From the sequence record NC_105514.1: a stretch of 64,000 bases of DNA, one strand, 5' to 3'. Positions 27,377-57,675 of the stretch are shown one piece after another. Made by a program: the position numbers and the translations under genes. The first letter of the stretch is position 1, and every line of letters begins with the position of its first letter. This DNA is from Escherichia phage JLBYU40. The notes below the pieces were generated by a model. The model had not been told where the DNA came from. It saw only the letters and a program-made list of their open reading frames with translations, and searched no databases.

Positions 27377-27691
27377 TTACAGATCGGGGCGTTCATCTTC
27401 GAAACAGCCTGAGCTGATTCCTTCTCCGAATCCTACAAAGCCATCAAATTCATCATTTGAGATGCCAATAATCATTGCTTCCATTTTCCTGATCTCCGAG
27501 GTTTTCATACCTGCTTTACTATTCTTATAGTATTTGCGAGGGTTCCCACACATCCAACAAGAACAGATGCAAGGAGTAGTAGTGACAATACCTAACCGCT
27601 TGGGGCTTTCTTCATGTGGGAAGACTGTCCAATACTTCTTGCGATTGTTCTTCACACGTTGCCGGTGATGGCGTCTTAATGCTCGATCCAC
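27377..27691 (-). CDS. Cys-rich basic protein
   Basis: 104 aa; CICSCWMC cluster. Confidence 0.4.
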   Translation of the reverse strand: MDRALRRHHRQRVKNNRKKYWTVFPHEESPKRLGIVTTTPCICSCWMCGNPRKYYKNSKAGMKTSEIRKMEAMIIGISNDEFDGFVGFGEGISSGCFEDERPDL

Positions 27692-27772
27692 ACATTTCTC
27701 CTAAAACTTGGGAGATAAATGGAGTTTGCTCGACTACCTTGCGTAGCTGGGAGAAATCGTATCCAAACCCCA

Positions 27773-28141
27773 TTACATCGCCTGAGTAAATGTACGACTA
27801 ATAACGTCGTTCTGTTGTTCACGAGTCAGTGCGTTAAATCGAACAGCGTAGCCAGATACACGGATAGTTAATTGAGGGTATTTTTCAGGATGTTTCTGTG
27901 CGTCTAAAAGCTGATCACGACTTAACACATTGACATTTAGGTGCTGACCGCCTTCGATTTGAGGGGCGACTTCCACTTTGACTTCACGGAAGGCTTCGGG
28001 ATCGAATTGTGGTGTGATACCTTCTAGATCTTCAACTAGAACTTTCTGTTTAAGTTCACCGTTATCGGAGTATAGCTGAATGATCTGATTTTCATGAACG
28101 AGATTGATTACGCCAGATTTAAGATTTTGATATGCTTTCAT
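27773..28141 (-). CDS. autonomous glycyl-radical cofactor (GrcA/YfiD-like)
   Basis: 122 aa; C-terminal RVSGYAVRF glycyl-radical motif. Confidence 0.6.
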
Positions 28142-28183
28142 TAGATCTCCCTGATGTTAGAATTTGGCTCAGCTCTTTATTCT

Positions 28184-28378
28184 CTATAGTTTACCACGAT
28201 ATACAGAAACTGTCTTACCAGTTTGGTTCATAACGTATGCTACTTCATCTTCTTTTAAGAAGATTGCTTGATCTATTCCAGAAATAGCTATGCTTTTATT
28301 TCTGGGATTAAACCCTACGCTTTTACCAACATGGATCTGCTCACCACCATCAGTGGACATTATTTTAACTGTTAACAT
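28184..28378 (-). CDS. hypothetical protein
   Basis: 64 aa ORF. Confidence 0.35.
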   Translation of the reverse strand: MLTVKIMSTDGGEQIHVGKSVGFNPRNKSIAISGIDQAIFLKEDEVAYVMNQTGKTVSVYRGKL

Positions 28379-28415: not shown

Positions 28416-28491
28416 TGGTAGTTAGTAGTGGATTTGAACCACTGTAGTCGCTCCGTATGAAGGAGGTGCATAACCACTCTGCCAACTAACT
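28416..28491 (-). tRNA. tRNA (anticodon CAT; Met, fMet or Ile2)
   Basis: hand-folded: 7-bp acceptor AGTTAGT/ACTAACT, T-arm, encoded CCA, anticodon loop TTCATAC. Confidence 0.55.
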
Positions 28492-28587
28492 GTTATGTTT
28501 TACTAGACTAAGTAAGTATTCTTTATACTCTTTAGACCAATTAGCTTTTTTAAACTTTCCTGGACGCATAGTCTTAATTCCTAAATT

Positions 28588-28664
28588 TGGTACTCCGGGA
28601 GGGATTTAAACCCCCGATCTCTCGGTTATCAGCCGAGTGCTTTAGATCGCTAAGCTACCGAAGC
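28588..28664 (-). tRNA. tRNA-Ile (GAT)
   Basis: acceptor with two G-U pairs, T-arm, CCA, anticodon loop CTGATAA. Confidence 0.55.
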
Positions 28665-28665
28665 A

Positions 28666-28893
28666 TTAACATTTTACAGCAGAACGTTTGCCATTTCTAG
28701 GTGCACCTGGAAGTCGTGCACGTTCTGCCATTCTTCGCTTAATCTTTGAGATATCTTCTAGTGTTTGTTCTTCAGGCTTAATACCTGAAACACTACACCA
28801 CTGATTACCATCCCATGCGGTAATGATCATAACACCGTTACTCATGATCTTTTCTGTGAAAGTAATCCTCATTATAGCAACTCGTCTAAGCAA
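28666..28893 (-). CDS. hypothetical protein
   Basis: 75 aa ORF. Confidence 0.35.
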   Translation of the reverse strand: MLRRVAIMRITFTEKIMSNGVMIITAWDGNQWCSVSGIKPEEQTLEDISKIKRRMAERARLPGAPRNGKRSAVKC

Positions 28894-29165
28894 GAGGTAT
28901 ATTTAAGTTTACCATCTTTATCTACTTTGATTTCGACTTCCGCTCGTGGTACTTGACGAACTACACCATGAATCATCTTATAGTTAATAGACTTAGACGG
29001 TTCATAATCTTTTGTGAAGACTTGCTTAATCGTTACTACCTTGTACCCATCACGCGGTGTTAACACAACAACTTGATCACCTTCTTTGATCTTCCAAGAG
29101 CTAGGAAATTCATAGGTATAGCGTTGACCACCAGTTTGGAACACAACAGAAAGATAACGTTTCAT
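28872..29165 (-). CDS. hypothetical protein
   Basis: 97 aa; downstream of early promoter 29195-29223. Confidence 0.45.
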   Translation of the reverse strand: MKRYLSVVFQTGGQRYTYEFPSSWKIKEGDQVVVLTPRDGYKVVTIKQVFTKDYEPSKSINYKMIHGVVRQVPRAEVEIKVDKDGKLKYTSCLDELL

Positions 29166-29194
29166 TTGGTTTCCCTCTCATTAATTTATATAAA

Positions 29195-29223
29195 TATTAT
29201 AACAAGAAATAAGAGAGAAAGCA
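29195..29223 (-). promoter_or_regulatory. early promoter
   Basis: -35 TTGCTT, 17-bp spacer, -10 TATAAT; leader ATATAAATTAATGAGAGGG. Confidence 0.55.
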
Positions 29224-29232
29224 AATGAATTT

Positions 29233-29427
29233 TTAATAAAGTTTAGTCACTTCATAAACTATACTACGAGATTCTTTATTTCGTTCTATTAAATTAGTAT
29301 ATGCTTTTTCAGCTTCATTTTTAGTATTAAAGTCTATAACGTGGGAGGTATTCGCTCTATTTGATTGACTATACCAGATAACTACTAACAGTTTAAACAT
29401 AATAGTCCTTAAATTGGTGCTGGGCAC
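29233..29427 (-). CDS. hypothetical protein (start uncertain)
   Basis: 64 aa ORF; listed start overlaps a tRNA 3' end, so the internal Met near 29400 is more likely. Confidence 0.3.
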   Translation of the reverse strand: MPSTNLRTIMFKLLVVIWYSQSNRANTSHVIDFNTKNEAEKAYTNLIERNKESRSIVYEVTKLY

Positions 29428-29501
29428 AGGATTCGAACCTGCAGCGGGATTACTCCTCCTGATTACAAATCAGGTGCATTCAACCATTCTGCCAACCCAG
29501 C
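29415..29501 (-). tRNA. type II tRNA, anticodon unresolved (canonical register TGT)
   Basis: perfect acceptor, GGTTCGAATCC T-arm, CCA, ~15-nt variable arm; anticodon stem CCTGA/TCAGG with loop TTTGTAA. Confidence 0.45.
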
Positions 29502-29666
29502 AGAACCCGTTATTTCAACGGGATTTCTTTTTCAATAACAGGAGACTTATCAGTCATAACTGCCATTGCCATTTGTTGTAGAAATTCAAAGGTGAAGGCT
29601 ACACGTTCTTCACCAATCTCTACTTCTACACGTTTCTTTTGTTTGTCGATCTTGACTTTTAGGTTA

Positions 29667-29918
29667 TCAGCCATTAGATAGTACAGTACTGGTAGTTGGC
29701 AATACTACAGATGAAGCAACAGTATTTAAATGCTTTCTCCAGTCTAGGTTAAATTGTTTTCGAAACTCTTCATAAGGTTCTTCTGGATAAAAGCTAAAAC
29801 CTCCTTTCTCATCATTCAGGATAACAGTGCCGTCAGTTTGTTCGTATGCTCGGTATGTTTCTCCAATAACAATAACTCGTTTATCAGTACTTTTATTACG
29901 GAACTCAAAAACGTGCAT
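29667..29918 (-). CDS. hypothetical protein
   Basis: 83 aa ORF. Confidence 0.4.
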   Translation of the reverse strand: MHVFEFRNKSTDKRVIVIGETYRAYEQTDGTVILNDEKGGFSFYPEEPYEEFRKQFNLDWRKHLNTVASSVVLPTTSTVLSNG

Positions 29919-29934
29919 AACGTTTCCTTAAAGT

Positions 29935-30010
29935 TGGAGCGGCTAGAGGGAATCGAACCCTACTCAGCGAGGCTTGGAAGGCCTGCGGCACAACCCGTAT
30001 GCTTAACCGC
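29935..30010 (-). tRNA. tRNA-Gly (TCC)
   Basis: acceptor GCGGTTA/TAGCCGC, T-arm GGTTCGATTCC, CCA, anticodon loop CTTCCAA. Confidence 0.55.
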
Positions 30011-30018
30011 TTATTATT

Positions 30019-30094
30019 TGGCTGGAGAAGGAGGAATCGAACCTACCATTAACGGAGTCAAAGGCCGTTGTGCTAACCGTTACACTACTCTCCA
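30019..30094 (-). tRNA. tRNA-Gln (TTG)
   Basis: U1-A72 acceptor, anticodon loop CTTTGAC, CCA. Confidence 0.55.
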
Positions 30095-30100
30095 ATTATT

Positions 30101-30176
30101 TGGCTGGGATGCCACGGATCGAACGTGGAACCTTCGGAGTCAGAGGCCGACGATCTGCCAATTGATCTACATCCCA
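30101..30176 (-). tRNA. tRNA-Gln (CTG)
   Basis: U1-A72 acceptor, anticodon loop CTCTGAC, CCA; close paralog of the previous tRNA. Confidence 0.55.
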
Positions 30177-30188
30177 ATAATTTTTATT

Positions 30189-30383
30189 CTACGGAAAAAT
30201 TGTTGTTGGCTCAGATTCTTCCAAACGTTTGCCTTCATGATCTACTCGAATAACTCCGCATCCCTCGCAAATCACAACAGCACCGTAGCCTTCTTTAACT
30301 TCAGCTTCTGTAATCAAACCAGAAAGATCACCAGTATCTCTGCCCCACATATCAATGGAGCATTGTTTGCAGAAATCAGCCAT
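30189..30383 (-). CDS. hypothetical Cys-containing small protein
   Basis: 64 aa ORF. Confidence 0.4.
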   Translation of the reverse strand: MADFCKQCSIDMWGRDTGDLSGLITEAEVKEGYGAVVICEGCGVIRVDHEGKRLEESEPTTIFP

Positions 30384-30408
30384 ATTTTATTTCCTATTTA
30401 AGTTAATT

Positions 30409-30485
30409 TGGGGTGGCTAGTGGAATTCGAATCCACATAGGCCTGATTCACAATCAGGATCATTAACCAATTATGATATAGCCAC
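30409..30485 (-). tRNA. tRNA-His (GTG)
   Basis: perfect acceptor, D, anticodon (loop TTGTGAA) and T stems; discriminator C; CCA. Confidence 0.65.
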
Positions 30486-30853
30486 AATTGAAAACTCGCA
30501 GGGTTAGCGAAACCATCCTCAATTAGCATGTTCTAGAATACTAATCAAGTTATCTCCTATTGCACGCAGCTCAAGACGAGTACGAATTTTCAATTGTGGC
30601 GGCTCTCCGAAACTCTTCTACTCTAGCCTTAGCAGCTTACTCCCGAACGCATGTCGGGAAAGTCTTACTAAGAGCATCAAATAGCACCGTTACACTTTGA
30701 GCCATTGATGTATCAAGGAATAGAAGGACTTGAACCTTCATGAGTTAGACCATTTAACTCAACCGCTTTTAAGGTATATTTCTAGGAGTGGATGTTCCTA
30801 GTAAACCTATTGGGCAGTCCCGTCTACCAATTCCGGCATATTCCAAGAATTAT

Positions 30854-31105
30854 TTAAAACTTATAGCCTTCAGGAACCTTATCTTTAACACCGTCATACT
30901 TAGCCTGAATGTAGTAGTCTGGTACATGATCTTTTGGCAGATTTTTATTAGTATCATGAACCTCAGCTCTAGCTTCTTCTTCAGAATCAAAGCCACGATA
31001 CCAGATTTCACCGCCCCACCCACGTTCACTTTCAGTATACTTAACAATATGTTTCATAAGGTTTTCCTTATAAGTTGGAGGAAGGTAATGGAGTCGAACC
31101 ATCAC
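30854..31105 (-). CDS. hypothetical protein
   Basis: 83 aa ORF between tRNA blocks. Confidence 0.45.
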   Translation of the reverse strand: MMVRLHYLPPTYKENLMKHIVKYTESERGWGGEIWYRGFDSEEEARAEVHDTNKNLPKDHVPDYYIQAKYDGVKDKVPEGYKF

Positions 31106-31165
31106 CGTATCACTACAGCGGGCTAGTTTTCAAGACTAGTTGCGTACCACTACGCCCTACCTTCC
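31076..31165 (-). tRNA. tRNA-Ser (TGA), type II
   Basis: acceptor GGAAGGT/ACCTTCC, anticodon loop CTTGAAA, long variable arm, CCA. Confidence 0.55.
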
Positions 31166-31172
31166 ATTTGTT

Positions 31173-31263
31173 TGGCGGAAGAGGAGAGATTTGAACTCTC
31201 AAGCCGTTTTACCAGTCAGCCACTTTCCAAGCGGTTTTCGTCGCCAATTCGATTTGCTCTTCC
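31173..31263 (-). tRNA. tRNA-Ser (GGA), type II
   Basis: perfect acceptor, T-arm GAGAG-TTCAAAT-CTCTC, CCA, long variable arm; 4-bp anticodon stem with one G-U, loop TTGGAAA. Confidence 0.45.
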
Positions 31264-31299
31264 AATAATAAGATGATGCCTCTATCACACCAGGCAGTT

Positions 31300-31372
31300 A
31301 CGCCTCGCTGGGATTCGAACCCATTAAAACAGCTCAACCGAGATAGTAGGTTTAGTTTACTCTGACCATCAA
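31300..31372 (-). other. tRNA-like element (T-arm only)
   Basis: canonical T-arm (rc of CTGGGATTCGAACCC) in a slot between two tRNAs, but no complementary acceptor or anticodon stem found. Confidence 0.2.
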
Positions 31373-31375
31373 ATT

Positions 31376-31452
31376 TGGTGCGTGACAAGGGATTCGAACC
31401 CTCAAAACCCGACTTCTAAGGACGGTATGTATGCCAATTCCATCAATCACGC
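31376..31452 (-). tRNA. tRNA (anticodon TAG, Leu-type; short variable loop)
   Basis: good acceptor, T-arm, CCA; anticodon stem has one U-U mismatch, loop CTTAGAA. Confidence 0.4.
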
Positions 31453-31457
31453 GTATT

Positions 31458-31531
31458 TGGTGGAGAAAGAGGGAGTTGAACCCTCGTCTTCTGCGTGCAA
31501 AGCAGATGTTCTACCATTAAACTATATCCCC
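31458..31531 (-). tRNA. tRNA-Ala (TGC)
   Basis: G3-U70 pair in acceptor, anticodon stem TCTGC/GCAGA, loop TTTGCAC, CCA. Confidence 0.6.
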
Positions 31532-31769
31532 AAATTCTTTAGTTTACTAAGGCTATTAGCTCGGCGTAACTACAGCACCTTCGCTTCGAGCGGAAGTAAC
31601 CGCGTCATCTCGCAAACCCGATACACTATTCAGTTGCCGCTGAATCTAGTGGACTAATCTAGAACCTCTCCCAAATCGTAGGGATCGTGCTTTTTGGCAG
31701 CCAGTCCTAGGTCGAGCTAATACCTTAGTGAACTATGATGAGGATTTCTCCTCATCAATTTATATAAAT

Positions 31770-31798
31770 ATTATAACAAGAAATTAAGCATCAAGCAA
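31770..31798 (-). promoter_or_regulatory. early promoter driving a noncoding leader plus tRNA block
   Basis: -35 TTGCTT, 17-bp spacer, -10 TATAAT; about 200 nt without a plausible ORF before tRNA-Ala. Confidence 0.5.
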
Positions 31799-31816
31799 AT
31801 GAGTTTTTCTTGAAAT

Positions 31817-31895
31817 TGGTAGATCGCCTGGGACTCGAACCCAGAACCTTCCGATTAAAAGTCGGATGCTACTAAACCTATTGAGCTAGCGATCT
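31817..31895 (-). tRNA. tRNA-Lys (TTT)
   Basis: perfect acceptor, anticodon stem TCCGA/TCGGA, loop CTTTTAA, CCA. Confidence 0.6.
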
Positions 31896-32084
31896 ATTAA
31901 TAACTATTGTATACTTCTTTAATAGAGTGAACTTTCAAGTAAGGGTGATTAGTACTAAACTCTATCATTACTTCATCCCAATTTTTACCATAATGAGCAA
32001 GTAAGGATTTTGATGTATTCTTACCTAAACGTTTGTCACTTACTACTAATCGAAATACTTTCATTTCGAAATCCTCTATTAAAG

Positions 32085-32162
32085 TGGAAGCGGGTGCAGG
32101 AATCGAACCTACCTCTTTCTAGCTTATGAGACTAGCGATCTCTACCAGAGATCTAACCCGCA
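32085..32162 (-). tRNA. tRNA (anticodon CAT; Met, fMet or Ile2)
   Basis: unpaired 1-72 (U-U), D-stem GATC/GATC, anticodon loop CTCATAA, CCA. Confidence 0.45.
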
Positions 32163-32168
32163 ATTGTT

Positions 32169-32246
32169 TGGTCTCCGTGGGAGGATTTGAACCCCCGACC
32201 CTATCGCCCCAAACGAAACGCTCTGGCCAAACTGAGCTACACGGAG
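32169..32246 (-). tRNA. tRNA-Pro (TGG)
   Basis: perfect acceptor, D-arm GCTC/GAGC, anticodon loop TTTGGGG (stem with one U-U), CCA. Confidence 0.5.
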
Positions 32247-32619
32247 AATATTATTTCTTTAACCACAGCAAAGATAAGCCCAGCATACTAAAACCGCTAA
32301 CTAATCCGATACATTTTTCTTCTATAGTAAAAGTATCTAGATTAAATGCTGTTATAGCTATTGGCATACACCATAATGCCATAAAAACTTGAGATATCTT
32401 GTGTTTCATTTTGCTTTCCTTCTCTTCACTTTATAAAATATATTATACAGATAATAAAGCAGAATAGCAAATGAATTTTTAATAAATTTACTTATTGTGT
32501 AGGCCACCTGGAGGCTACCAACCCCACGGCTGACAAAGAAGTTTGCGAGACCTCTCTTAAATGCCAGAATAGACCCGCCGGTCTATCGGAACCTACATAA
32601 TAAGTAAACTTTATAGTGT

Positions 32620-32740
32620 CATTCTAGACAGGACTCGAACCTGTTATCACTTGTGCGGACTTACGAGAACCATTCTTTCACTCGAATCGAACGAGCTTCT
32701 GCCCCCGCCAAGCTGGTTTCCCCATCAACCACGCTAGAAT
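32620..32740 (-). other. oversized tRNA-like element (~120 nt)
   Basis: canonical T-arm (rc of ACAGGACTCGAACCTGT) but the only complementary acceptor partner lies ~115 nt away; no CCA. Confidence 0.2.
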
Positions 32741-32862
32741 GTTTGATTGTTTTCAGTGCAAGAGTCCGAGTCTTGGACACGACCGCTTCGCAAGTACATA
32801 GGCGGCTTATCATGAGTCAGCACTTCCGAATTGCTAGCTTCGTGTTCTGCACTGAAATTTTG

Positions 32863-33210
32863 TTAATTTAATAGTAAAGTACGATCTACTTCACCATTAA
32901 TTGTTCGGCATTCTTCTGGGATTGCTGGTGTAGTCTTATATTCCCACCATTCAGAACCATCATATTCACCACGTTCTAACCAAGTTCCATCGGTAAACCA
33001 TACGTTACCATAAAGCAATTGTCCGCCGAAACCAGAATCATATTTAAAGTCTAGATTATCTAGAAAATCTTCAATATCTTTTTCTGTATAACCTACGGGT
33101 AATACCCAAACTTCTTTATCCCCATAATAACCGAATTCTATCTTAATACACTTAACTTCAGAATTAGTATTCTTTAGGGCAAGTAACAATTCTTCTTTAG
33201 CATTAATCAT
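32863..33210 (-). CDS. hypothetical acidic protein
   Basis: 115 aa ORF. Confidence 0.45.
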   Translation of the reverse strand: MINAKEELLLALKNTNSEVKCIKIEFGYYGDKEVWVLPVGYTEKDIEDFLDNLDFKYDSGFGGQLLYGNVWFTDGTWLERGEYDGSEWWEYKTTPAIPEECRTINGEVDRTLLLN

Positions 33211-33236
33211 AGCGTATTTCTCGTGCTAGTTTAGTT

Positions 33237-33313
33237 TGGCGCGACCGATGGGATTCGAACCCACATTCTCTCCCGTGACAGGGGAGTACCATTACCAAGC
33301 CAGCCCCGGTCGC
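33237..33313 (-). tRNA. tRNA-Asp (GTC)
   Basis: perfect acceptor, anticodon stem CTCCC/GGGAG, loop CTGTCAC, CCA. Confidence 0.65.
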
Positions 33314-33322
33314 ATAATTCAT

Positions 33323-33508
33323 TTACTCAGCTTTGAGTTTTTCAATAGCTGCATTAAGTTCCTTAAGAAACTCTTTTCGTACATTAAGACGATTAAGACT
33401 TACTAGTATATCATGTTTAAGTTCTTCGATGTATTTCTTCTCAACTTCAATATTGTTGATAGTGCTATCACGATGAACTTCTAGCTGTGCAATTACGTTC
33501 TTGGACAT
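33323..33508 (-). CDS. hypothetical coiled-coil protein
   Basis: 61 aa ORF. Confidence 0.35.
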   Translation of the reverse strand: MSKNVIAQLEVHRDSTINNIEVEKKYIEELKHDILVSLNRLNVRKEFLKELNAAIEKLKAE

Positions 33509-33610
33509 GCTTGTTTCCTCAGTTATTAATGAAAATGGTATCTGTGGCTGAATTCGATGTCAGCAATGATAGCTGGTTGGCTACCGGTTTACTTAACTCT
33601 ACACAGAATT

Positions 33611-33688
33611 TGGCGGTTCCTGCTGGATTCGAACCAGCAACCCTCAACTTAACAAGATGCCGCTCTAACCAATTAGAGCTAAGGAACC
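33611..33688 (-). tRNA. tRNA-Asn (GTT)
   Basis: perfect acceptor and T-arm, CCA; anticodon loop TTGTTAA but stem has two mismatches. Confidence 0.45.
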
Positions 33689-34183
33689 ATATAAGTCAGA
33701 ACTAGAGTTAATACGTTCTAGATATTTACTAAGATCTCTAGAATTTATACTAAACCACTCATGTTCTTTTAAATCTTTGAAATACTGGTGAATTAGTTTT
33801 TCACCTTTTCGTTTGTCAAACCAAAAAGACCAATGCTCTAACTTATAATCCCTATAAGGGGAATAAGTCTGATATTGAGCTAATCTCTCTTTTGGATTTT
33901 GACTCATACCTATTTTATACTGATTTTTCCATGCAGGATTACTAATACAGTATACAAAACCTTCAGAAATAGGAAGTTTATTTTCCTGCTTAAACTTTAT
34001 AAAGGAAAGTGCAGCAAGTTTTCTCGAATACATAGTATTTGTATTCTTTTTGGTATTACCATTGGTTCCTGAAAGATTTATATATTCTTCCATAAATCTT
34101 TGGATTAGTTCTGCGGTTATATAGAAGGGCTCATTAGTAACAATACCTTTCTTTACCAAACTATCAAAAACTCTTGTATGCAC
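33665..34183 (-). CDS. T5orf172-domain (GIY-YIG-like) protein
   Basis: 172 aa; GFVYCISNP...YKIGMSQNPKERLAQY resembles the T5orf172 motif; 3' end overlaps tRNA-Asn by ~24 nt. Confidence 0.55.
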   Translation of the reverse strand: MHTRVFDSLVKKGIVTNEPFYITAELIQRFMEEYINLSGTNGNTKKNTNTMYSRKLAALSFIKFKQENKLPISEGFVYCISNPAWKNQYKIGMSQNPKERLAQYQTYSPYRDYKLEHWSFWFDKRKGEKLIHQYFKDLKEHEWFSINSRDLSKYLERINSSSDLYGSLALIG

Positions 34184-34204
34184 TACTTCTTTCCTTTAGT
34201 AATT

Positions 34205-34280
34205 TGGACGACCGCATGAGATTTGAACTCACATAAAAAGGATTTGCAATCCTTCGCCTAAGCCATTCAGCCAACGGTCG
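34205..34280 (-). tRNA. tRNA-Cys (GCA)
   Basis: acceptor with terminal G-U, anticodon stem AAGGA/TCCTT, loop TTGCAAA, CCA. Confidence 0.55.
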
Positions 34281-34357
34281 GTTTATCTTGTTCTGTCATG
34301 TTGCTTCTCCAGTTCAATTTATGTAATTATTATACAGAACTTTTGGAAACTAAGCAA

Positions 34358-34627
34358 CTACATTTTTAAGAATTTGATGCCTTTCTTTTTCTTCTTATAT
34401 TTCCACGTTAATGGATTCTGCCGATTGTGAACGCTTGAGATCTTCGTCTCGTCAAAGTTCTTCAATATCATGTAATCACAAGATAATTGTTCTAATGGAA
34501 TGTGATCACCGTCAAAAGCATATACATAAGGCTGTTGACTAACACGATAATGATAGACTTTGTTAATTCTACGTTTTAGCGACTTATCAGCGCAGTAAAT
34601 AAAGAAGTTTTCAGGATGCATCAGCAT
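34358..34627 (-). CDS. hypothetical basic protein
   Basis: 89 aa ORF. Confidence 0.4.
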   Translation of the reverse strand: MLMHPENFFIYCADKSLKRRINKVYHYRVSQQPYVYAFDGDHIPLEQLSCDYMILKNFDETKISSVHNRQNPLTWKYKKKKKGIKFLKM

Positions 34628-34638
34628 CTCCTTCGATT

Positions 34639-34713
34639 TGGTGCACCCTGTTCGTATCGAACGAACCTCTCAAGCTCTTCAGGCAAGCGCTAATCCATCT
34701 CAGCTAAAGGTGC
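34639..34713 (-). tRNA. tRNA, probably Phe (GAA)
   Basis: good acceptor, T-arm, CCA; anticodon loop CTGAAGA but stem has two U-U mismatches. Confidence 0.4.
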
Positions 34714-34719
34714 AAATTT

Positions 34720-34796
34720 TGGCAAACCTACTAGGACTCGAACCTAGACCGTACGGTTTTGGAGACCGACATGCTGTCCAGTAACACTCTAGGAAT
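34720..34796 (-). tRNA. tRNA-Trp (CCA)
   Basis: anticodon arm CGGTCTCCAAAACCG as in bacterial tRNA-Trp; perfect T-arm; acceptor has two U-U mismatches; CCA. Confidence 0.5.
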
Positions 34797-34804
34797 GCAG
34801 AAAT

Positions 34805-34881
34805 TGGCGTCCTGTGCGGGGATCGAACCCGCAAATCCTACCTTGAAAGGGTAGTGACTTTACCAGTTTGTCTAACAGGAC
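34805..34881 (-). tRNA. tRNA-Glu (TTC)
   Basis: perfect acceptor, anticodon stem CTACC/GGTAG, loop CTTTCAA, CCA. Confidence 0.65.
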
Positions 34882-34888
34882 TTAAATT

Positions 34889-34979
34889 TGGTGTTGGATG
34901 ATGGAGTCGAACCACCCGAGACCCTTCCGAGTCGGCAGATTTACAGTCTGCTTCGCTACCTCTACGATACTAATCCAAC
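34889..34979 (-). tRNA. tRNA-Tyr (GTA), type II
   Basis: anticodon arm GCAGACTGTAAATCTGC, long variable arm, CCA. Confidence 0.65.
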
Positions 34980-35107
34980 ATATTTAAAAGTATTCAAATA
35001 CTAGTTTAAACACTTTTAAATATGTTTCCGAATTAGATAACTATTATATCAAGTTTTAAGGCACTGAGCAAGTCAAATTTTAAAGAACTTGCTCAGTGCT
35101 GTATTAG

Positions 35108-35383
35108 TTAGTCGAACTTAGGAGTGACAGTTAAGGAGAACGGAAGTTCGAAAACTTCTTCGCCCTCATTACTAACGGTAACTACACGACCTTTAAGTTC
35201 AGACATTAAAATATCAATATCAGCTTTTGCATCTGGAGCCATGCCAGCTTCAATACATTTAGCTTTAACTTCCGGTAAAAGCTCTACGTTATAGAGATAG
35301 AGCCACTCAATCTCACCTTCCCAGTCTTCCCAGGATTTGCAGATTGCACTTTCAATACCAGTTGCTACAACACGATTTTGCAT
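35108..35383 (-). CDS. hypothetical acidic protein
   Basis: 91 aa ORF with early promoter upstream. Confidence 0.45.
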   Translation of the reverse strand: MQNRVVATGIESAICKSWEDWEGEIEWLYLYNVELLPEVKAKCIEAGMAPDAKADIDILMSELKGRVVTVSNEGEEVFELPFSLTVTPKFD

Positions 35384-35473
35384 TAATTAACTCCTTCATC
35401 AATTTATATAACTATTATACCAGAAATTTAAAGTAAAAGGCAAGTACATTTTTAAAAATTCTGTTTGGAGGAG

Positions 35474-35680
35474 CTAAACTCCAGATTTTTCGGCCAAGTC
35501 TAGACTAATAAGAGTTATAGCCATAATTGCTGCACCGTGTTCTTTTTCTCCGGTGTTTTTAGCAGAGTCTATAATATCCTTAATCTGTTCGTAATAACTT
35601 TTTACTTCTTGTTCAATGCCTGCCTCGGCTATCATGCCTTTAGCCATGAATCGTTGCATGGTAATTTCAGGATTAGCCAT
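35474..35680 (-). CDS. hypothetical protein
   Basis: 68 aa ORF. Confidence 0.4.
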   Translation of the reverse strand: MANPEITMQRFMAKGMIAEAGIEQEVKSYYEQIKDIIDSAKNTGEKEHGAAIMAITLISLDLAEKSGV

Positions 35681-35855
35681 GTTGTTTCTCCAGTTTCATT
35701 TTTAATAGTTTACAGATGAAATCAACGTCTTCATCTGTGCCTAAGTCTCTATCCTCAAGGGTCGCCTTGAAGTTTTTCGTCAATTCCATGAGGATGACTT
35801 CCCTAGAACGACGTGTTGGCGGAGGTGGATGTCTATACATCTTATTTCCTTAATT

Positions 35856-35932
35856 TGGTAGGGGTGGTGGGATTCGAACCCACAAAACCTGAATTTTAAG
35901 TCCAGTACCTATGCCAATTCGATTACACCCCC
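35856..35932 (-). tRNA. tRNA (anticodon TAA, Leu-type; short variable loop)
   Basis: acceptor GGGGGTG/CACCCCT, anticodon stem CTGGA/TTCAG, loop CTTAAAA, CCA. Confidence 0.45.
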
Positions 35933-53114: not shown

Positions 53115-54989
53115 ATGAATCGTAATGAAGAACTAAAATATAAAGAAATGCAGGCGTTAATTAGAAACTGCAAAGAGATTATCGAAGGGTCAGCAGATGA
53201 AGAGCTGCTGTTTAATAATGCTAATAAACCCTCAGAACGTTTCCCTACACAAAGGGATATGCTTGCAGGTGAATTGAGTAAGTATCTAATTCTAGAAGAA
53301 ATGCCAATTCAGATTCGAAATGCTCATATGATTGGGGATATTCATTTCCATGATGCTGATTATGCTGCATTAGGCATGACTAACTGTTGCCTGGTAGCTC
53401 TGGAAGATATGTTGAAGAATGGTATGAAGGTTGGTAATGCTGAAATTAGCACTCCAAACTCTATCACTACTGCGGCGGCTATTACTGCTCAGATTATCAC
53501 TCAGGTTAGCTCCCATCAGTATGGTGGTACTTCTGTAGATCGCCTTGATGAAGTATTAGCCCCTTATGTTCGTAAATCCTATGACAAAAATCATGCGTTT
53601 GCAAAACGCTGGACTAAGGATGAGGCCAAAGCATCCGTAATGGCTACGGAGATGACTGAAAAAGAAGTCTATGATGCTTGTCAGGGTCTAGAGTATGAGA
53701 TCAATACGATGTTCAACTCTAATGGTCAGAGTCCATTTATTACCTTTGGTTTTGGTCTAGGAACTTCTTGGGAAGCTCGTCTAGTACAGAAAGCAATACT
53801 GAAAGTACGTATGGATGGTTTAGGTATCAATAAACGTACAGCTATCTTCCCGAAACTGGTATTTGTACTTCGTGATGGAGTAAATATGAAACCAGGAGAT
53901 GTTAATTATGACATCAAGAAGTTAGCTATGAAATGTACTGCTGAACGTATGTATCCAGATTATATCAGCTATGACAAAGTTGTAGAAGTTACTGGAGACT
54001 ACAAAGTTTCTATGGGCTGCCGTTCATTCCTAGCTGCTACAGAAGATGGTGAAACTGCAGGTCGTAATAACTTAGGTGTTGTTTCTGTAAACTTGCCTAG
54101 AATTGCTATCGAAGCTGAAGGAAATATTGACCTATTCTTTGATTTGCTTGAGCTACGTGTAGATACAGCATTAAAAGCGTTGGAGTGGAGAGTTGATCGC
54201 TTAAAATACATTCAAGCTAAAGCTGCACCCATCCTCTATATGTCAGGAGCCTTTGGGTTACGCTTAGGGCCTGATGAATATGTATTTGATCATTTCTATA
54301 ACCGTGCTTCTGTATCTCTAGGGTATATTGGTTGCCATGAAATGCTACAGTTCATGTTTGGCAAAGATGTAGACACAATGTCCGAGACCTGCATTAAGTT
54401 TGTTCAGCGTGTATTGCAGTACATGCGAGATAGAGTCGATCAGAAGAAGGAAGAAACTAAGTTAGGTTATAGCCTGTATGCTACACCATCAGAATCCCTA
54501 TGTGATCGTTTTTGTCGTCTAGACCGTGAATATTTCCCGGAGCATGAAGATATTCTGTCTAAAGGATACTACACTAACTCGCACCACCTTGATGTAGAAC
54601 GCAAAGTTGCTCCCAATGTGAAATTTGATTATGAATCTAATTTTACTCCGATTGCTTCTGGTGGGTGCATTTCCTATGTAGAACTACCAGATATGAAACG
54701 ATTCCCAGATGCACTGGAATGGGTTATTAATTATGCTGCTAGTAAAGTTCATTACTTCGGTATTAATACTCCAGTGGATTCTTGTGGTAAATGTGGATTC
54801 TTAGGTGAAACAATAGCATCCGAAGATGGATTTAAGTGCCCTATCTGTGGTAATCATGACCCCGAAACTCTTGAAGTAACTCGTCGAGTTTGTGGGTATC
54901 TTGGAAATCCAGGTGCTCGTCCATTTAACCCGGGCAAACAGCACGAGGTTATGGGCAGAGTGAAACATCAGGATATTCGAGCTAAATAA
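53115..54989 (+). CDS. nrdD: anaerobic ribonucleoside-triphosphate reductase (class III)
   Basis: 624 aa; C-terminal RRVCGYLG glycyl-radical motif and CxxC zinc ribbon. Confidence 0.75.
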   Translation: MNRNEELKYKEMQALIRNCKEIIEGSADEELLFNNANKPSERFPTQRDMLAGELSKYLILEEMPIQIRNAHMIGDIHFHDADYAALGMTNCCLVALEDMLKNGMKVGNAEISTPNSITTAAAITAQIITQVSSHQYGGTSVDRLDEVLAPYVRKSYDKNHAFAKRWTKDEAKASVMATEMTEKEVYDACQGLEYEINTMFNSNGQSPFITFGFGLGTSWEARLVQKAILKVRMDGLGINKRTAIFPKLVFVLRDGVNMKPGDVNYDIKKLAMKCTAERMYPDYISYDKVVEVTGDYKVSMGCRSFLAATEDGETAGRNNLGVVSVNLPRIAIEAEGNIDLFFDLLELRVDTALKALEWRVDRLKYIQAKAAPILYMSGAFGLRLGPDEYVFDHFYNRASVSLGYIGCHEMLQFMFGKDVDTMSETCIKFVQRVLQYMRDRVDQKKEETKLGYSLYATPSESLCDRFCRLDREYFPEHEDILSKGYYTNSHHLDVERKVAPNVKFDYESNFTPIASGGCISYVELPDMKRFPDALEWVINYAASKVHYFGINTPVDSCGKCGFLGETIASEDGFKCPICGNHDPETLEVTRRVCGYLGNPGARPFNPGKQHEVMGRVKHQDIRAK

Positions 54990-55088: not shown

Positions 55089-55370
55089 ATGAGCGAGTTG
55101 CTTCCTAAAGTAGATGTCTCCCATCTTGGAGAGCCTAGTGAAGAACGTAAGGCTCTAGATTGGTTGGGTGGATTTGATTATCGTCGTGTTGTTGCAACAT
55201 GGAATGATAAGAAAGTTAAGAAGTTTCGGGTACATTATGTAGGTAAAGACAAGTGGCTCTGGATTGATTATGAAGAATCAAAGGGGTCTACTAAGGCTGT
55301 GAAAATTTATTGTATGTATGGGTATTATTATGCTCACTGTGATAAGAATGAATTTACAGTACAGAACTAA
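55089..55370 (+). CDS. hypothetical protein
   Basis: 93 aa; RBS GAGAGGAGAAAG. Confidence 0.5.
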   Translation: MSELLPKVDVSHLGEPSEERKALDWLGGFDYRRVVATWNDKKVKKFRVHYVGKDKWLWIDYEESKGSTKAVKIYCMYGYYYAHCDKNEFTVQN

Positions 55371-55379
55371 GGAACAAGA

Positions 55380-55583
55380 ATGAAAAACGTAAAACATCTT
55401 AAATATCGCTTAATTTACAACGGACGTATGGAAACAGAAGATCTGGCCCAATTAGCTATTAATTCTAATGAGGTTACGGTGCGTGCTCTGGCAATTGAAA
55501 AGTTGCGTGCCTCTTATGAAAATCGTGTTATGGAACTGGAGGAGAAACTTTATGGACTTCTTGAATCAGAATCTAAAAAGTAA
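55380..55583 (+). CDS. hypothetical protein
   Basis: 67 aa ORF. Confidence 0.4.
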   Translation: MKNVKHLKYRLIYNGRMETEDLAQLAINSNEVTVRALAIEKLRASYENRVMELEEKLYGLLESESKK

Positions 55584-55746
55584 TCCAGAAAACATGCTTA
55601 TTGAGCAATGGAACTTTGGTTATAATGCTGGTGTAGCTACTTGTATTGCTAGATTGGATACGCTTATTAAGCAAGAAAAGGTACGCCCTGAGGAAGCAAT
55701 TTTACTCCAAAATATTATCGAAGGATTTAAGCAAGGAATCGTATAG
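55552..55746 (+). CDS. hypothetical protein
   Basis: 64 aa from ATG 55552 with RBS GGAGGAGAAA; internal start of the longer listed ORF. Confidence 0.4.
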   Translation: MDFLNQNLKSNPENMLIEQWNFGYNAGVATCIARLDTLIKQEKVRPEEAILLQNIIEGFKQGIV

Positions 55747-56582
55747 TGCGTAGATTAGTTATTATTAGCGGTGCAGGTTTGAGTGTTGAAAGTGGTGTAC
55801 GAGCTTTTCGTACTGATACTGCTAGTGGTAAAGCATTGTGGGATGATTATGATCTAGAAGAAGTATGTAATATTCATGCCTTTCGTGGTAATTTTTATCA
55901 TAAAACCCATATGTTTTACAACAAACGTCGTGAAGAGCTAAAAACTGTTGAACCCAATCTTGCACATTTGCGTATTGGTGAATGGTATAAACAATATCCA
56001 GGTCAAGTAGTAAACTTGACTACCAACGTTGATGACCTTATTGAGCGTGCTGGCGTTCCACATAGTGACATTCTGCACATTCACGGATATTTAAAAGAGG
56101 TTGTTGTAGCTGATAGCTACAATAGTAGCAATAAACGGATTATTGATGTAGGGTATAATTCTATTGATCCAGATGATTATAAATGGGTTAAACCTAATGT
56201 AATCTTCTTTGGAGAACATGCTCCTGCATACGCAGAAATGTATAATGTTTTTGATGGTATTACCAGTCAAGATATGATCATTGTGGTTGGTTGCTCTAAT
56301 CAAGTAATTAACTTCTACTGGGAATTATTTCCTGTTCTTAATTTGACTGCTGCCAAACTAATGGTAGTTAACTACTATGATAGTGCCATAGCAGCAGAGC
56401 CAGGCTATCAAGGTATGACTCGTAGTGAGATGTACCAACTGGAAGATCGTGGTATTCCTTACTGGAGTAAAGGTGCAGTAGATGCTTTTAGTGACCCTGA
56501 TTTTATTGCTCGTGTGGAAGCCCATTTAGAGGGTAGACCTTATGTGCCGGAGAGAAGGGGAAACAGATATGTCCATAGTTAA
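55746..56582 (+). CDS. Sir2-like (sirtuin-family) NAD-binding protein
   Basis: 278 aa; GAGLSVESGVRAFR, TTNVDDLIERAG and HIHGYL sirtuin-type motifs. Confidence 0.6.
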   Translation: MRRLVIISGAGLSVESGVRAFRTDTASGKALWDDYDLEEVCNIHAFRGNFYHKTHMFYNKRREELKTVEPNLAHLRIGEWYKQYPGQVVNLTTNVDDLIERAGVPHSDILHIHGYLKEVVVADSYNSSNKRIIDVGYNSIDPDDYKWVKPNVIFFGEHAPAYAEMYNVFDGITSQDMIIVVGCSNQVINFYWELFPVLNLTAAKLMVVNYYDSAIAAEPGYQGMTRSEMYQLEDRGIPYWSKGAVDAFSDPDFIARVEAHLEGRPYVPERRGNRYVHS

Positions 56583-56751
56583 ATCTGTTTATACACATCC
56601 CGATGATATATTTGTATGGGCGGACGGTAGTTGGTGCTATCGCTGTGAGCTGTGGGAAATGGACTATAAATCCGATGACTATGGTGTCATATATGTTGAT
56701 ACGGCTGAGTATGATACGTTCTTAGAAAGGAACAAAAATGGAAATAAGTAA
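56569..56751 (+). CDS. hypothetical acidic protein
   Basis: 60 aa from ATG 56569 with RBS AGAAGGGGA. Confidence 0.35.
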   Translation: MSIVKSVYTHPDDIFVWADGSWCYRCELWEMDYKSDDYGVIYVDTAEYDTFLERNKNGNK

Positions 56752-57244
56752 TACTCCAATTATTTTTCTAGATATTGATGGGGTGCTCAATTCGAGCATC
56801 TCCCACCATCATGCGCCTGATCATGAAAAGATTTTCTTTGGAAGTGACTGGGTTTTCAAACCGCTTCTCAAGGCTTTTCAGGACTTTATTCGTCCTTCTC
56901 CGATAATGATTGTTGGAGTATCCTCATGGTTCCCTGTCAGGAATGAGATGGAGAACGTTCAGATTATGACCGGATTAGGTCTTATCGATCGTTTTCTTGG
57001 TACAACGGATTTTACTGGTGGTGGGCTATCTAGGGGTAATTCTGTTCTTCGCTTCGTTGAAAAGCATAAGCTCAAACATTGGTGTGTGCTGGATGATGCT
57101 GGTGCTATGATGTACCAGTATCCAACGGTTATAGTCAACGGTAGAACTGGAATAAATCTTCAAGATTTAAGAGCTGTTAGCTATATGCTAGAATTTAGCC
57201 CAGATCTTGAAATGTGTAAATCCTTACAACAATTTAAGGTGTAA
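56738..57244 (+). CDS. HAD-like hydrolase
   Basis: 168 aa; N-terminal IIFLDIDGVLN (DxDGV). Confidence 0.45.
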   Translation: MEISNTPIIFLDIDGVLNSSISHHHAPDHEKIFFGSDWVFKPLLKAFQDFIRPSPIMIVGVSSWFPVRNEMENVQIMTGLGLIDRFLGTTDFTGGGLSRGNSVLRFVEKHKLKHWCVLDDAGAMMYQYPTVIVNGRTGINLQDLRAVSYMLEFSPDLEMCKSLQQFKV

Positions 57245-57246
57245 AT

Positions 57247-57675
57247 ATGTTCAATAATGTATTCTCTAAAGAAGCTAACCCAATTTTGGTTAACTTTTGG
57301 CGTACTCTCCCGGCTAGCCTGTATAATGAGGCTATTAACTCCTTGAAAATATGGTGTGAAAATAATGAAATCTCCTTTGCTTTTAAAGATGATATTGATG
57401 AGGCCCCCTGTATTGGTTTAGTTGTGCAGGTAGAGGATGGTCTTGAAGAGATTGTGGGCTGGAAAGAGTTAGACGAAATGGGCTTAGTTTTTGCGTTAAA
57501 TTATAAGCTGTTTATGCCTGCTAAGCATCGCCTCGTTGTTAACCATAAAACTAGTGAATCTCCTGGTTTTCAGGTTAATGAACGTTATGGTTGGTCTTAC
57601 TCACCGGAAGAAGTAAATGAGGGGATTCAGAAACTTCGCCGTTTTGGTTATCAGATTCCGGGTTTAACTGCTTAA
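57247..57675 (+). CDS. hypothetical protein, paralog A
   Basis: 142 aa; shares D(D/E)PCIG...W(K/N)EL(D/S)(E/A)MGL(V/I)(F/V)ALN(Y/F)(K/S)LF(M/H)P and ...Y(Q/V)(I/P)PGL(T/N) with the next ORF. Confidence 0.5.
   Translation: MFNNVFSKEANPILVNFWRTLPASLYNEAINSLKIWCENNEISFAFKDDIDEAPCIGLVVQVEDGLEEIVGWKELDEMGLVFALNYKLFMPAKHRLVVNHKTSESPGFQVNERYGWSYSPEEVNEGIQKLRRFGYQIPGLTA

Follow-up and report, generated by a model that had tools for sequence, protein, structure and literature searches.

The gene at positions 27773 to 28141 of the stretch of phage DNA analyzed here (64,000 nucleotides [nt] in length; referred to below as the window) probably encodes an autonomous glycyl radical cofactor, a small protein that would repair host pyruvate formate-lyase (PFL) cleaved by oxygen and that would do so via the host PFL activase, PflA. 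Judged by homology and conservation, and by published work on a relative in phage T4, rescue of a host glycyl radical enzyme is the best-supported mechanism for this gene, but it is not a new one. The features discussed below are as follows.

27773 to 28141 (stop codon included), minus strand: coding sequence of the GrcA/Y06I-type autonomous glycyl radical protein, 122 amino acids (aa), ortholog of T5.056 (from the open reading frame [ORF] list, Pfam, PHROG 1209, homology, and dN/dS).
27776 to 27958, minus strand: PFL-type glycyl radical domain, residues 62 to 122 (gap-free alignment to PflB and GrcA; AF2 model).
27851 to 27853, minus strand: Gly97 codon; this glycine, within RVSGYAV, is predicted to bear the radical (position computed; aligned to PflB Gly734 and GrcA Gly102).
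27959 to 28141, minus strand: N-terminal half, residues 1 to 61 (homologous to the N-terminal half of T4 Y06I and perhaps, weakly, to that of GrcA).
28147 to 28151, minus strand: Shine-Dalgarno sequence GGGAG, 5 nt 5' of the ATG (read off the sequence).
53115 to 54989, plus strand: nrdD, class III (anaerobic) ribonucleotide reductase (RNR), with its own glycyl radical site at Gly594 (Pfam; context only).

The window is from a T5-like phage (Demerecviridae, Tequintavirus). It is collinear with the complete genome of Salmonella phage Th1 at 86 to 99% identity, and around the GrcA-like gene, identity is 97% with Escherichia phage phiAPCEc03 and approximately 90 to 97% with hundreds of T5-like phages that infect Salmonella and E. 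coli. The 122-aa protein itself is 100% identical to a protein of Th1. The T5 ortholog, T5.056, is of equal length (369 nt) and occupies the equivalent position and context, bordering the early tRNA cluster, and T5 annotation places it downstream of early promoter P11. In the ORF list, the GrcA-like ORF, for which the original prediction named no strand, lies on the minus strand and starts with ATG. A scan for promoters and terminators around the gene returned no more sites than the shuffled expectation, and we therefore make no claim regarding its transcription signals. The stop codon of the gene overlaps, in TAATG, the start of a 53-aa ORF (27612 to 27773, minus strand; PHROG 31464, unknown function). 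On the other side, a 64-aa ORF of unknown function (28184 to 28378, minus strand; PHROG 3909) precedes the gene, with 42 nt between them; since T5 has tRNA-Met directly upstream instead, this ORF represents an insertion relative to T5. Farther upstream, starting at 28416 (about 270 nt from the gene), come 20 tRNA genes on the same strand (28416 to 35932, minus strand), and such a cluster beside the gene is typical of the T5 early region.

Homologs of the GrcA-like protein were present in 1583 phage records, including 434 T5-like records with at least 80% protein identity. T4-like homologs (from phages of Escherichia, Klebsiella, Shigella, and others) showed about 52% identity over the full length, and further homologs were found in jumbo phages and in Vibrio and Aeromonas phages. 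The names given to orthologs in GenBank vary widely. Many records, including those of identical proteins, carry "autonomous glycyl radical cofactor GrcA," and others carry "pyruvate formate-lyase," "2-ketobutyrate formate-lyase," "acetyltransferase-related," or "hypothetical." The label "pyruvate formate-lyase" is a misnomer, because the protein has neither the catalytic barrel nor Cys418/Cys419 of PflB and TdcE and is thus a cofactor module and not an enzyme. The label "ribonucleotide reductase subunit," found on the orthologs of Salmonella phage 1-19 and Citrobacter phage YZU-L1, is wrong. In a separate annotation discrepancy, Th1_045 (L007 27749 to 28165) has been called from an upstream start, giving 417 nt instead of 369 nt.

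The original prediction of a GrcA-like 122-aa protein carrying RVSGYAVRF was borne out by comparisons of the C-terminal half, in which the similarity went well past anything expected by chance. The Pfam Gly_radical model matched with an E value of 3.7e-18 (66 bits against a cutoff of 22). The best matches among solved structures were the nuclear magnetic resonance (NMR) structure of YfiD/GrcA (6owr; 1.4e-30; residues 46 to 121 of the protein on YfiD residues 49 to 126) and the C terminus of PflB (5e-27; residues 61 to 122 aligned without gaps on PflB residues 698 to 759, PDB numbering). These alignments to GrcA/YfiD and to PFL C termini place Gly97 on PflB Gly734 and on GrcA Gly102, confirming that the conserved glycine is present. 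The motif spans residues 94 to 102; it had been described as C-terminal, but it stops 20 residues short of the end of the protein and does not form the very C terminus. Over the 61 ungapped residues of the radical domain, identity was 84% to TdcE (51/61), 80% to PflB (49/61), 79% to GrcA (48/61), and 79% to T4 Y06I; when DNA was compared, pflB was the nearest E. coli sequence (75.8%). In an alignment of 48 phage and bacterial family members, RVSGYAVRF, including Gly97, did not vary, and 36 C-terminal domain columns were invariant. The 122-aa protein retains the strand that duplicates PFL beta10, along with the RVSGYAV loop and the tail. The likeness to PFL ends there: the formate C-acetyltransferase model TIGR01255 was matched only at profile positions 683 to 744 of 744, with 86 bits against a cutoff of 994, which places the protein outside that family.

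The overall architecture is that of GrcA/YfiD, i.e., a stand-alone protein of about 14 kDa with a PFL-type radical domain at its C terminus and a glycine (Gly97) in RVSGYAV. Like E. coli GrcA/YfiD (P68066; 6owr), the protein has about 60 aa in its N-terminal half and then a 61-aa radical domain, and the AF2 models of the phage protein and of a bacterial GrcA look similar; the phage protein differs from E. coli GrcA in being phage encoded, in the T5 early/tRNA region, and in having an N-terminal half that is barely recognizable in pairwise comparison (z = 3.4; 12 of 2000 shuffles scored as high), with the likeness residing essentially in the REVxVEVxP stretch alone. As a result of this divergence of the phage N-terminal half, the protein fell below the cutoff of the NCBIfam GrcA equivalog model TIGR04365 (IPR011140), scoring 121 bits against 170 over residues 50 to 122 only. 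In the same comparison, E. coli GrcA scored 234 bits and T4 Y06I scored 151 bits, likewise under the cutoff; since Y06I is biochemically validated, a score below 170 bits is no argument against function. Relatedness to Y06I (vs.6; NP_049730) extends over the entire length. Both are small stand-alone phage proteins (120 aa in T4 and 122 aa here) that begin with MKAYQ, contain the RVSGYAVRF loop, belong to PHROG 1209, and are 52% identical at 100% coverage. The match of the window protein to the PHROG 1209 profile was 8e-48, with residues 1 to 122 on profile positions 1 to 121, and local alignment of the two N-terminal halves gave a z value of 5.6, with 1 of 2000 shuffles scoring as high. Gln5 hardly varies among the 48 aligned sequences, in which the N-terminal half follows a common pattern, and a signature, LS.+QL..AQ, separates most phage copies from bacterial ones. 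Full-length homology to Y06I, together with conservation and selection of the gene, places the protein in the Y06I/vs.6/T5.056 family.

The AF2 model of the protein (mean pLDDT of 77) agrees with this assignment. Its C-terminal half adopts the YfiD/PFL radical domain fold (Foldseek matches to 6owr at 4.8e-6 and to 2pfl at 3.2e-4). The N-terminal half is modeled as beta rich with a pLDDT of 81 to 89 for residues 1 to 40 (86 to 89 over residues 1 to 30), and Foldseek returned no PDB fold match for this part of the model. We considered and rejected the idea of a phage-specific ordered N-terminal domain: a bacterial GrcA (P0095) modeled from the same alignment was also beta rich, with a pLDDT of about 81 to 89 over residues 1 to 40, indicating that the feature belongs to the family as a whole and is nothing new in phages. 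By NMR, free YfiD has been reported to be disordered over its N-terminal 60 residues. One possibility that would reconcile the predicted order with the NMR result is that this half takes up its conformation only on binding.

PMC8683613 (citing Wagner et al. 2001) describes E. coli YfiD and T4 Y06I as spare-part proteins of about 14 kDa on which the PFL-activating enzyme (PFL-AE) installs a glycyl radical and which, once activated, form complexes with oxygen-cleaved PFL and restore its activity; the same source gives the two as the only validated spare parts. Given the full-length homology to Y06I and retention of the strand, the RVSGYAV loop, and the tail, we infer the same mechanism for the protein of the window. 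When the host cell is anaerobic or microaerobic, activated PFL would be cleaved by oxygen at Gly734. The phage radical domain (residues 62 to 122), assisted by the N-terminal half, would then dock where the cleaved enzyme has lost its own, and host PflA would put a radical on Gly97 of the docked phage protein, upon which PFL activity would return. The expected benefit is that production of acetyl coenzyme A, ATP, and formate could continue even when the phage has silenced host gene expression and the infected cell can make no replacement 85-kDa PflB. In the library searched, no publication dealt specifically with the T5-type protein, and to our knowledge, an in vivo phenotype or benefit has been reported for no phage, T4 vs.6 included.

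Selection was assessed with four T5-like phages (the phage of the window, Th1, VSe12, and T5). The GrcA-like gene had a dN/dS of 0.03 to 0.06 at a dS of 0.34 to 0.83. Within the radical domain, each pair of phages showed 0 nonsynonymous compared to 9 to 20 synonymous differences, and dN/dS for the N-terminal half was 0.04 to 0.13; these low values indicate that both halves are under strong purifying selection. This analysis refutes a reading that could be taken from the annotation record, namely, that the gene is a decaying, functionless fragment of a captured host pflB or grcA gene. That the protein covers only the last 8% of PflB and has been labeled "pyruvate formate-lyase," "acetyltransferase-related," or "hypothetical" would fit a fragment, but the dN/dS values at this depth of divergence would not, and neither would the good Shine-Dalgarno sequence, the full-length GrcA-type architecture with its conserved N-terminal half, and the conservation of the gene in T5-like, T4-like, jumbo, and Vibrio/Aeromonas phages. 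We regard this reading as having next to no chance of being correct.

A different concern is whether the constraint reflects repair of PFL at all. The protein might instead serve as a decoy or modulator that binds host PFL or titrates PflA, thereby altering fermentative flux, or that blocks host GrcA-dependent repair, and it would carry out no repair itself. The N-terminal half gives this idea some footing: in YfiD, that half matters for binding of cleaved PFL and for activation (PMC8683613), and in the phage protein it is strongly diverged from GrcA and, in most phage copies, bears the LS.+QL..AQ signature that sets them apart from bacterial ones. However, constraint is absolute on the radical glycine, on the entire RVSGYAVRF loop, and on the catalytically relevant tail, for which a mere binder would have no need, and the T4 homolog repairs PFL in vitro, according to PMC8683613. 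A decoy function thus appears very unlikely to us.

For the favored function, repair of a host PFL, the choice of partner deserves separate consideration. The 25 residues after the glycine are identical to TdcE at 23 positions, to PflB at 20, and to GrcA at 18, and the radical domain as a whole also has its highest count of identities with TdcE, the paralogous 2-ketobutyrate/pyruvate formate-lyase of the host (51/61, compared to 49/61 for PflB and 48/61 for GrcA). With identity to GrcA and T4 Y06I at only 79% and a post-glycine tail nearest that of TdcE, the T5-type protein could have a different preferred partner. We nevertheless consider it unlikely that the protein is tuned mainly to TdcE and not to PflB. 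The differences amount to a few residues within 61, and the neighbor-joining (NJ) tree is without support values; moreover, the part of the domain before the glycine is nearest other phage copies (31 to 32 of 35 residues), compared to 27/35 for TdcE. In addition, TdcE is made only under particular conditions, whereas PflB is the abundant enzyme.

In the NJ tree of the 61 residues, which is without support values, and in the identity tables, the T5-type radical domain groups with copies from jumbo phages and Vibrio phages, but its origin is not firmly resolvable because the domain is short and highly conserved. It is conceivable, if improbable, that the T5-type proteins, together with those of jumbo and Vibrio phages, form a phage-specific lineage of spare parts whose partner or control differs from that of bacterial GrcA. 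The LS.+QL..AQ signature, the TdcE-like post-glycine tail, and the divergent but strongly constrained N-terminal half would be the marks of such a lineage. If it exists, its members might serve TdcE as well as PflB; alternatively, they might engage undamaged or inactive PFL, and the phage would then control fermentative flux while being fully reliant on host activases.

The T4 protein differs from the T5 type in its radical domain, which is 96.7% identical to that of E. coli GrcA, whereas the T5-type domain is 78.7% identical to either. The high identity in T4 suggests a recent exchange with the host gene. When T4 vs.6 (L002 6558 to 6920) was compared with E. coli grcA (L004 3067 to 3450), the N-terminal half was of the phage type and the radical domain was GrcA-like; on this pattern, vs.6 looks like the product of a recent gene conversion or recombination with host grcA. 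A hybrid arrangement of another kind was seen in metagenomic "GrcA" clusters (P0098, P0100, P0107 [900 members], P0108, P0109, P0115, and P0118), which have a bacterial GrcA N terminus and a PflB-type C-terminal tail (…NSLTKEQQQDVITRTFTQSM) and lie mostly on contigs of about 1 kb. These represent either assembly chimeras across an identical 22-residue stretch or real grcA/pflB conversion.

The window also encodes a second glycyl radical protein. The nrdD assignment at 53115 to 54989 was correct: the 624-aa product matches Pfam NRDD (4.4e-172) and Gly_radical (9.4e-23), and RRVCGYLG occupies residues 590 to 597, with the radical glycine at 594 and a Cys4 zinc ribbon (CGKCG...CPICG) immediately before it. 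The original prediction had named both a host glycyl radical enzyme and the phage's own NrdD as possible beneficiaries of the 122-aa protein. The first is favored by the full-length homology to Y06I; the second, in which the protein would be a spare part for the phage's class III RNR, we judge to be extremely improbable. It is true that both genes reside in one phage and that each encodes a glycyl radical motif, that nrdD or nrdG accompanies the GrcA-like gene in many phage groups, and that spare parts for other glycyl radical enzymes have been the subject of speculation (PMC8683613). However, BLASTP of the 122-aa protein against the phage NrdD gave no similarity (E = 5.7), and the two have only the generic RV.GY in common. 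The protein contains 0 cysteines and hence lacks the zinc ribbon that precedes the radical site of NrdD, as well as its RVCGY; what it carries is a PFL-type domain 80 to 84% identical to the tails of PflB and TdcE. The two genes are 25 kb apart on opposite strands, with no operon link indicated. Finally, class III RNR requires the activase NrdG, but RVSGYAV is reported, from peptide-substrate work with PFL-AE, to be the recognition sequence of the PFL activase. The co-occurrence of the GrcA-like gene and nrdD is best explained by a common lifestyle, infection of facultative anaerobes.

The region downstream of nrdD (55089 to 57675, plus strand) contains two small ORFs, which match PHROGs 7953 and 5827 and have no known function, and genes for a SIR2-family protein (55746 to 56582), a HAD_SAK_2 domain protein (56738 to 57244), and a DUF7415 protein (57247 to 57675). 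A phage SIR2 gene adjoining genes of nucleotide metabolism may merit a separate look.

How either protein would acquire its radical depends on the activases available. When E. coli PflA and NrdG were used as tblastn queries, no homolog was found in the 64,000-nt window; the complete genome of Th1, a close relative, likewise yielded none and has none annotated. The best match (E = 0.2 to 0.3) was to a 93-aa ORF directly downstream of nrdD, which we dismissed as a chance match, as this ORF matches only PHROG 7953, of unknown function. With no phage activase found, activation would depend on a host enzyme, and T5-like phages, to judge from these two sequences, seem to need host activases for NrdD as well as for the GrcA-like protein, their two glycyl radical proteins. 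This is a further difference from T4, which encodes the NrdG activase for its NrdD; T4-like phages carry the GrcA-like gene, nrdD, and nrdG together.

The window adds no new concept to the biology of these proteins. The phage spare-part phenomenon is already known, its principle dating from the 2001 characterization of the T4 homolog, and the annotation of the T5 gene has named a glycine radical protein since deposition of the T5 genome. What the gene provides is an example of a phage that, at little cost, carries a 14-kDa module for repair of a host enzyme of 170 kDa. Such a module would fit the needs of lytic phages of gut enterobacteria, which must complete replication in cells exposed to trace oxygen once host expression has been silenced.
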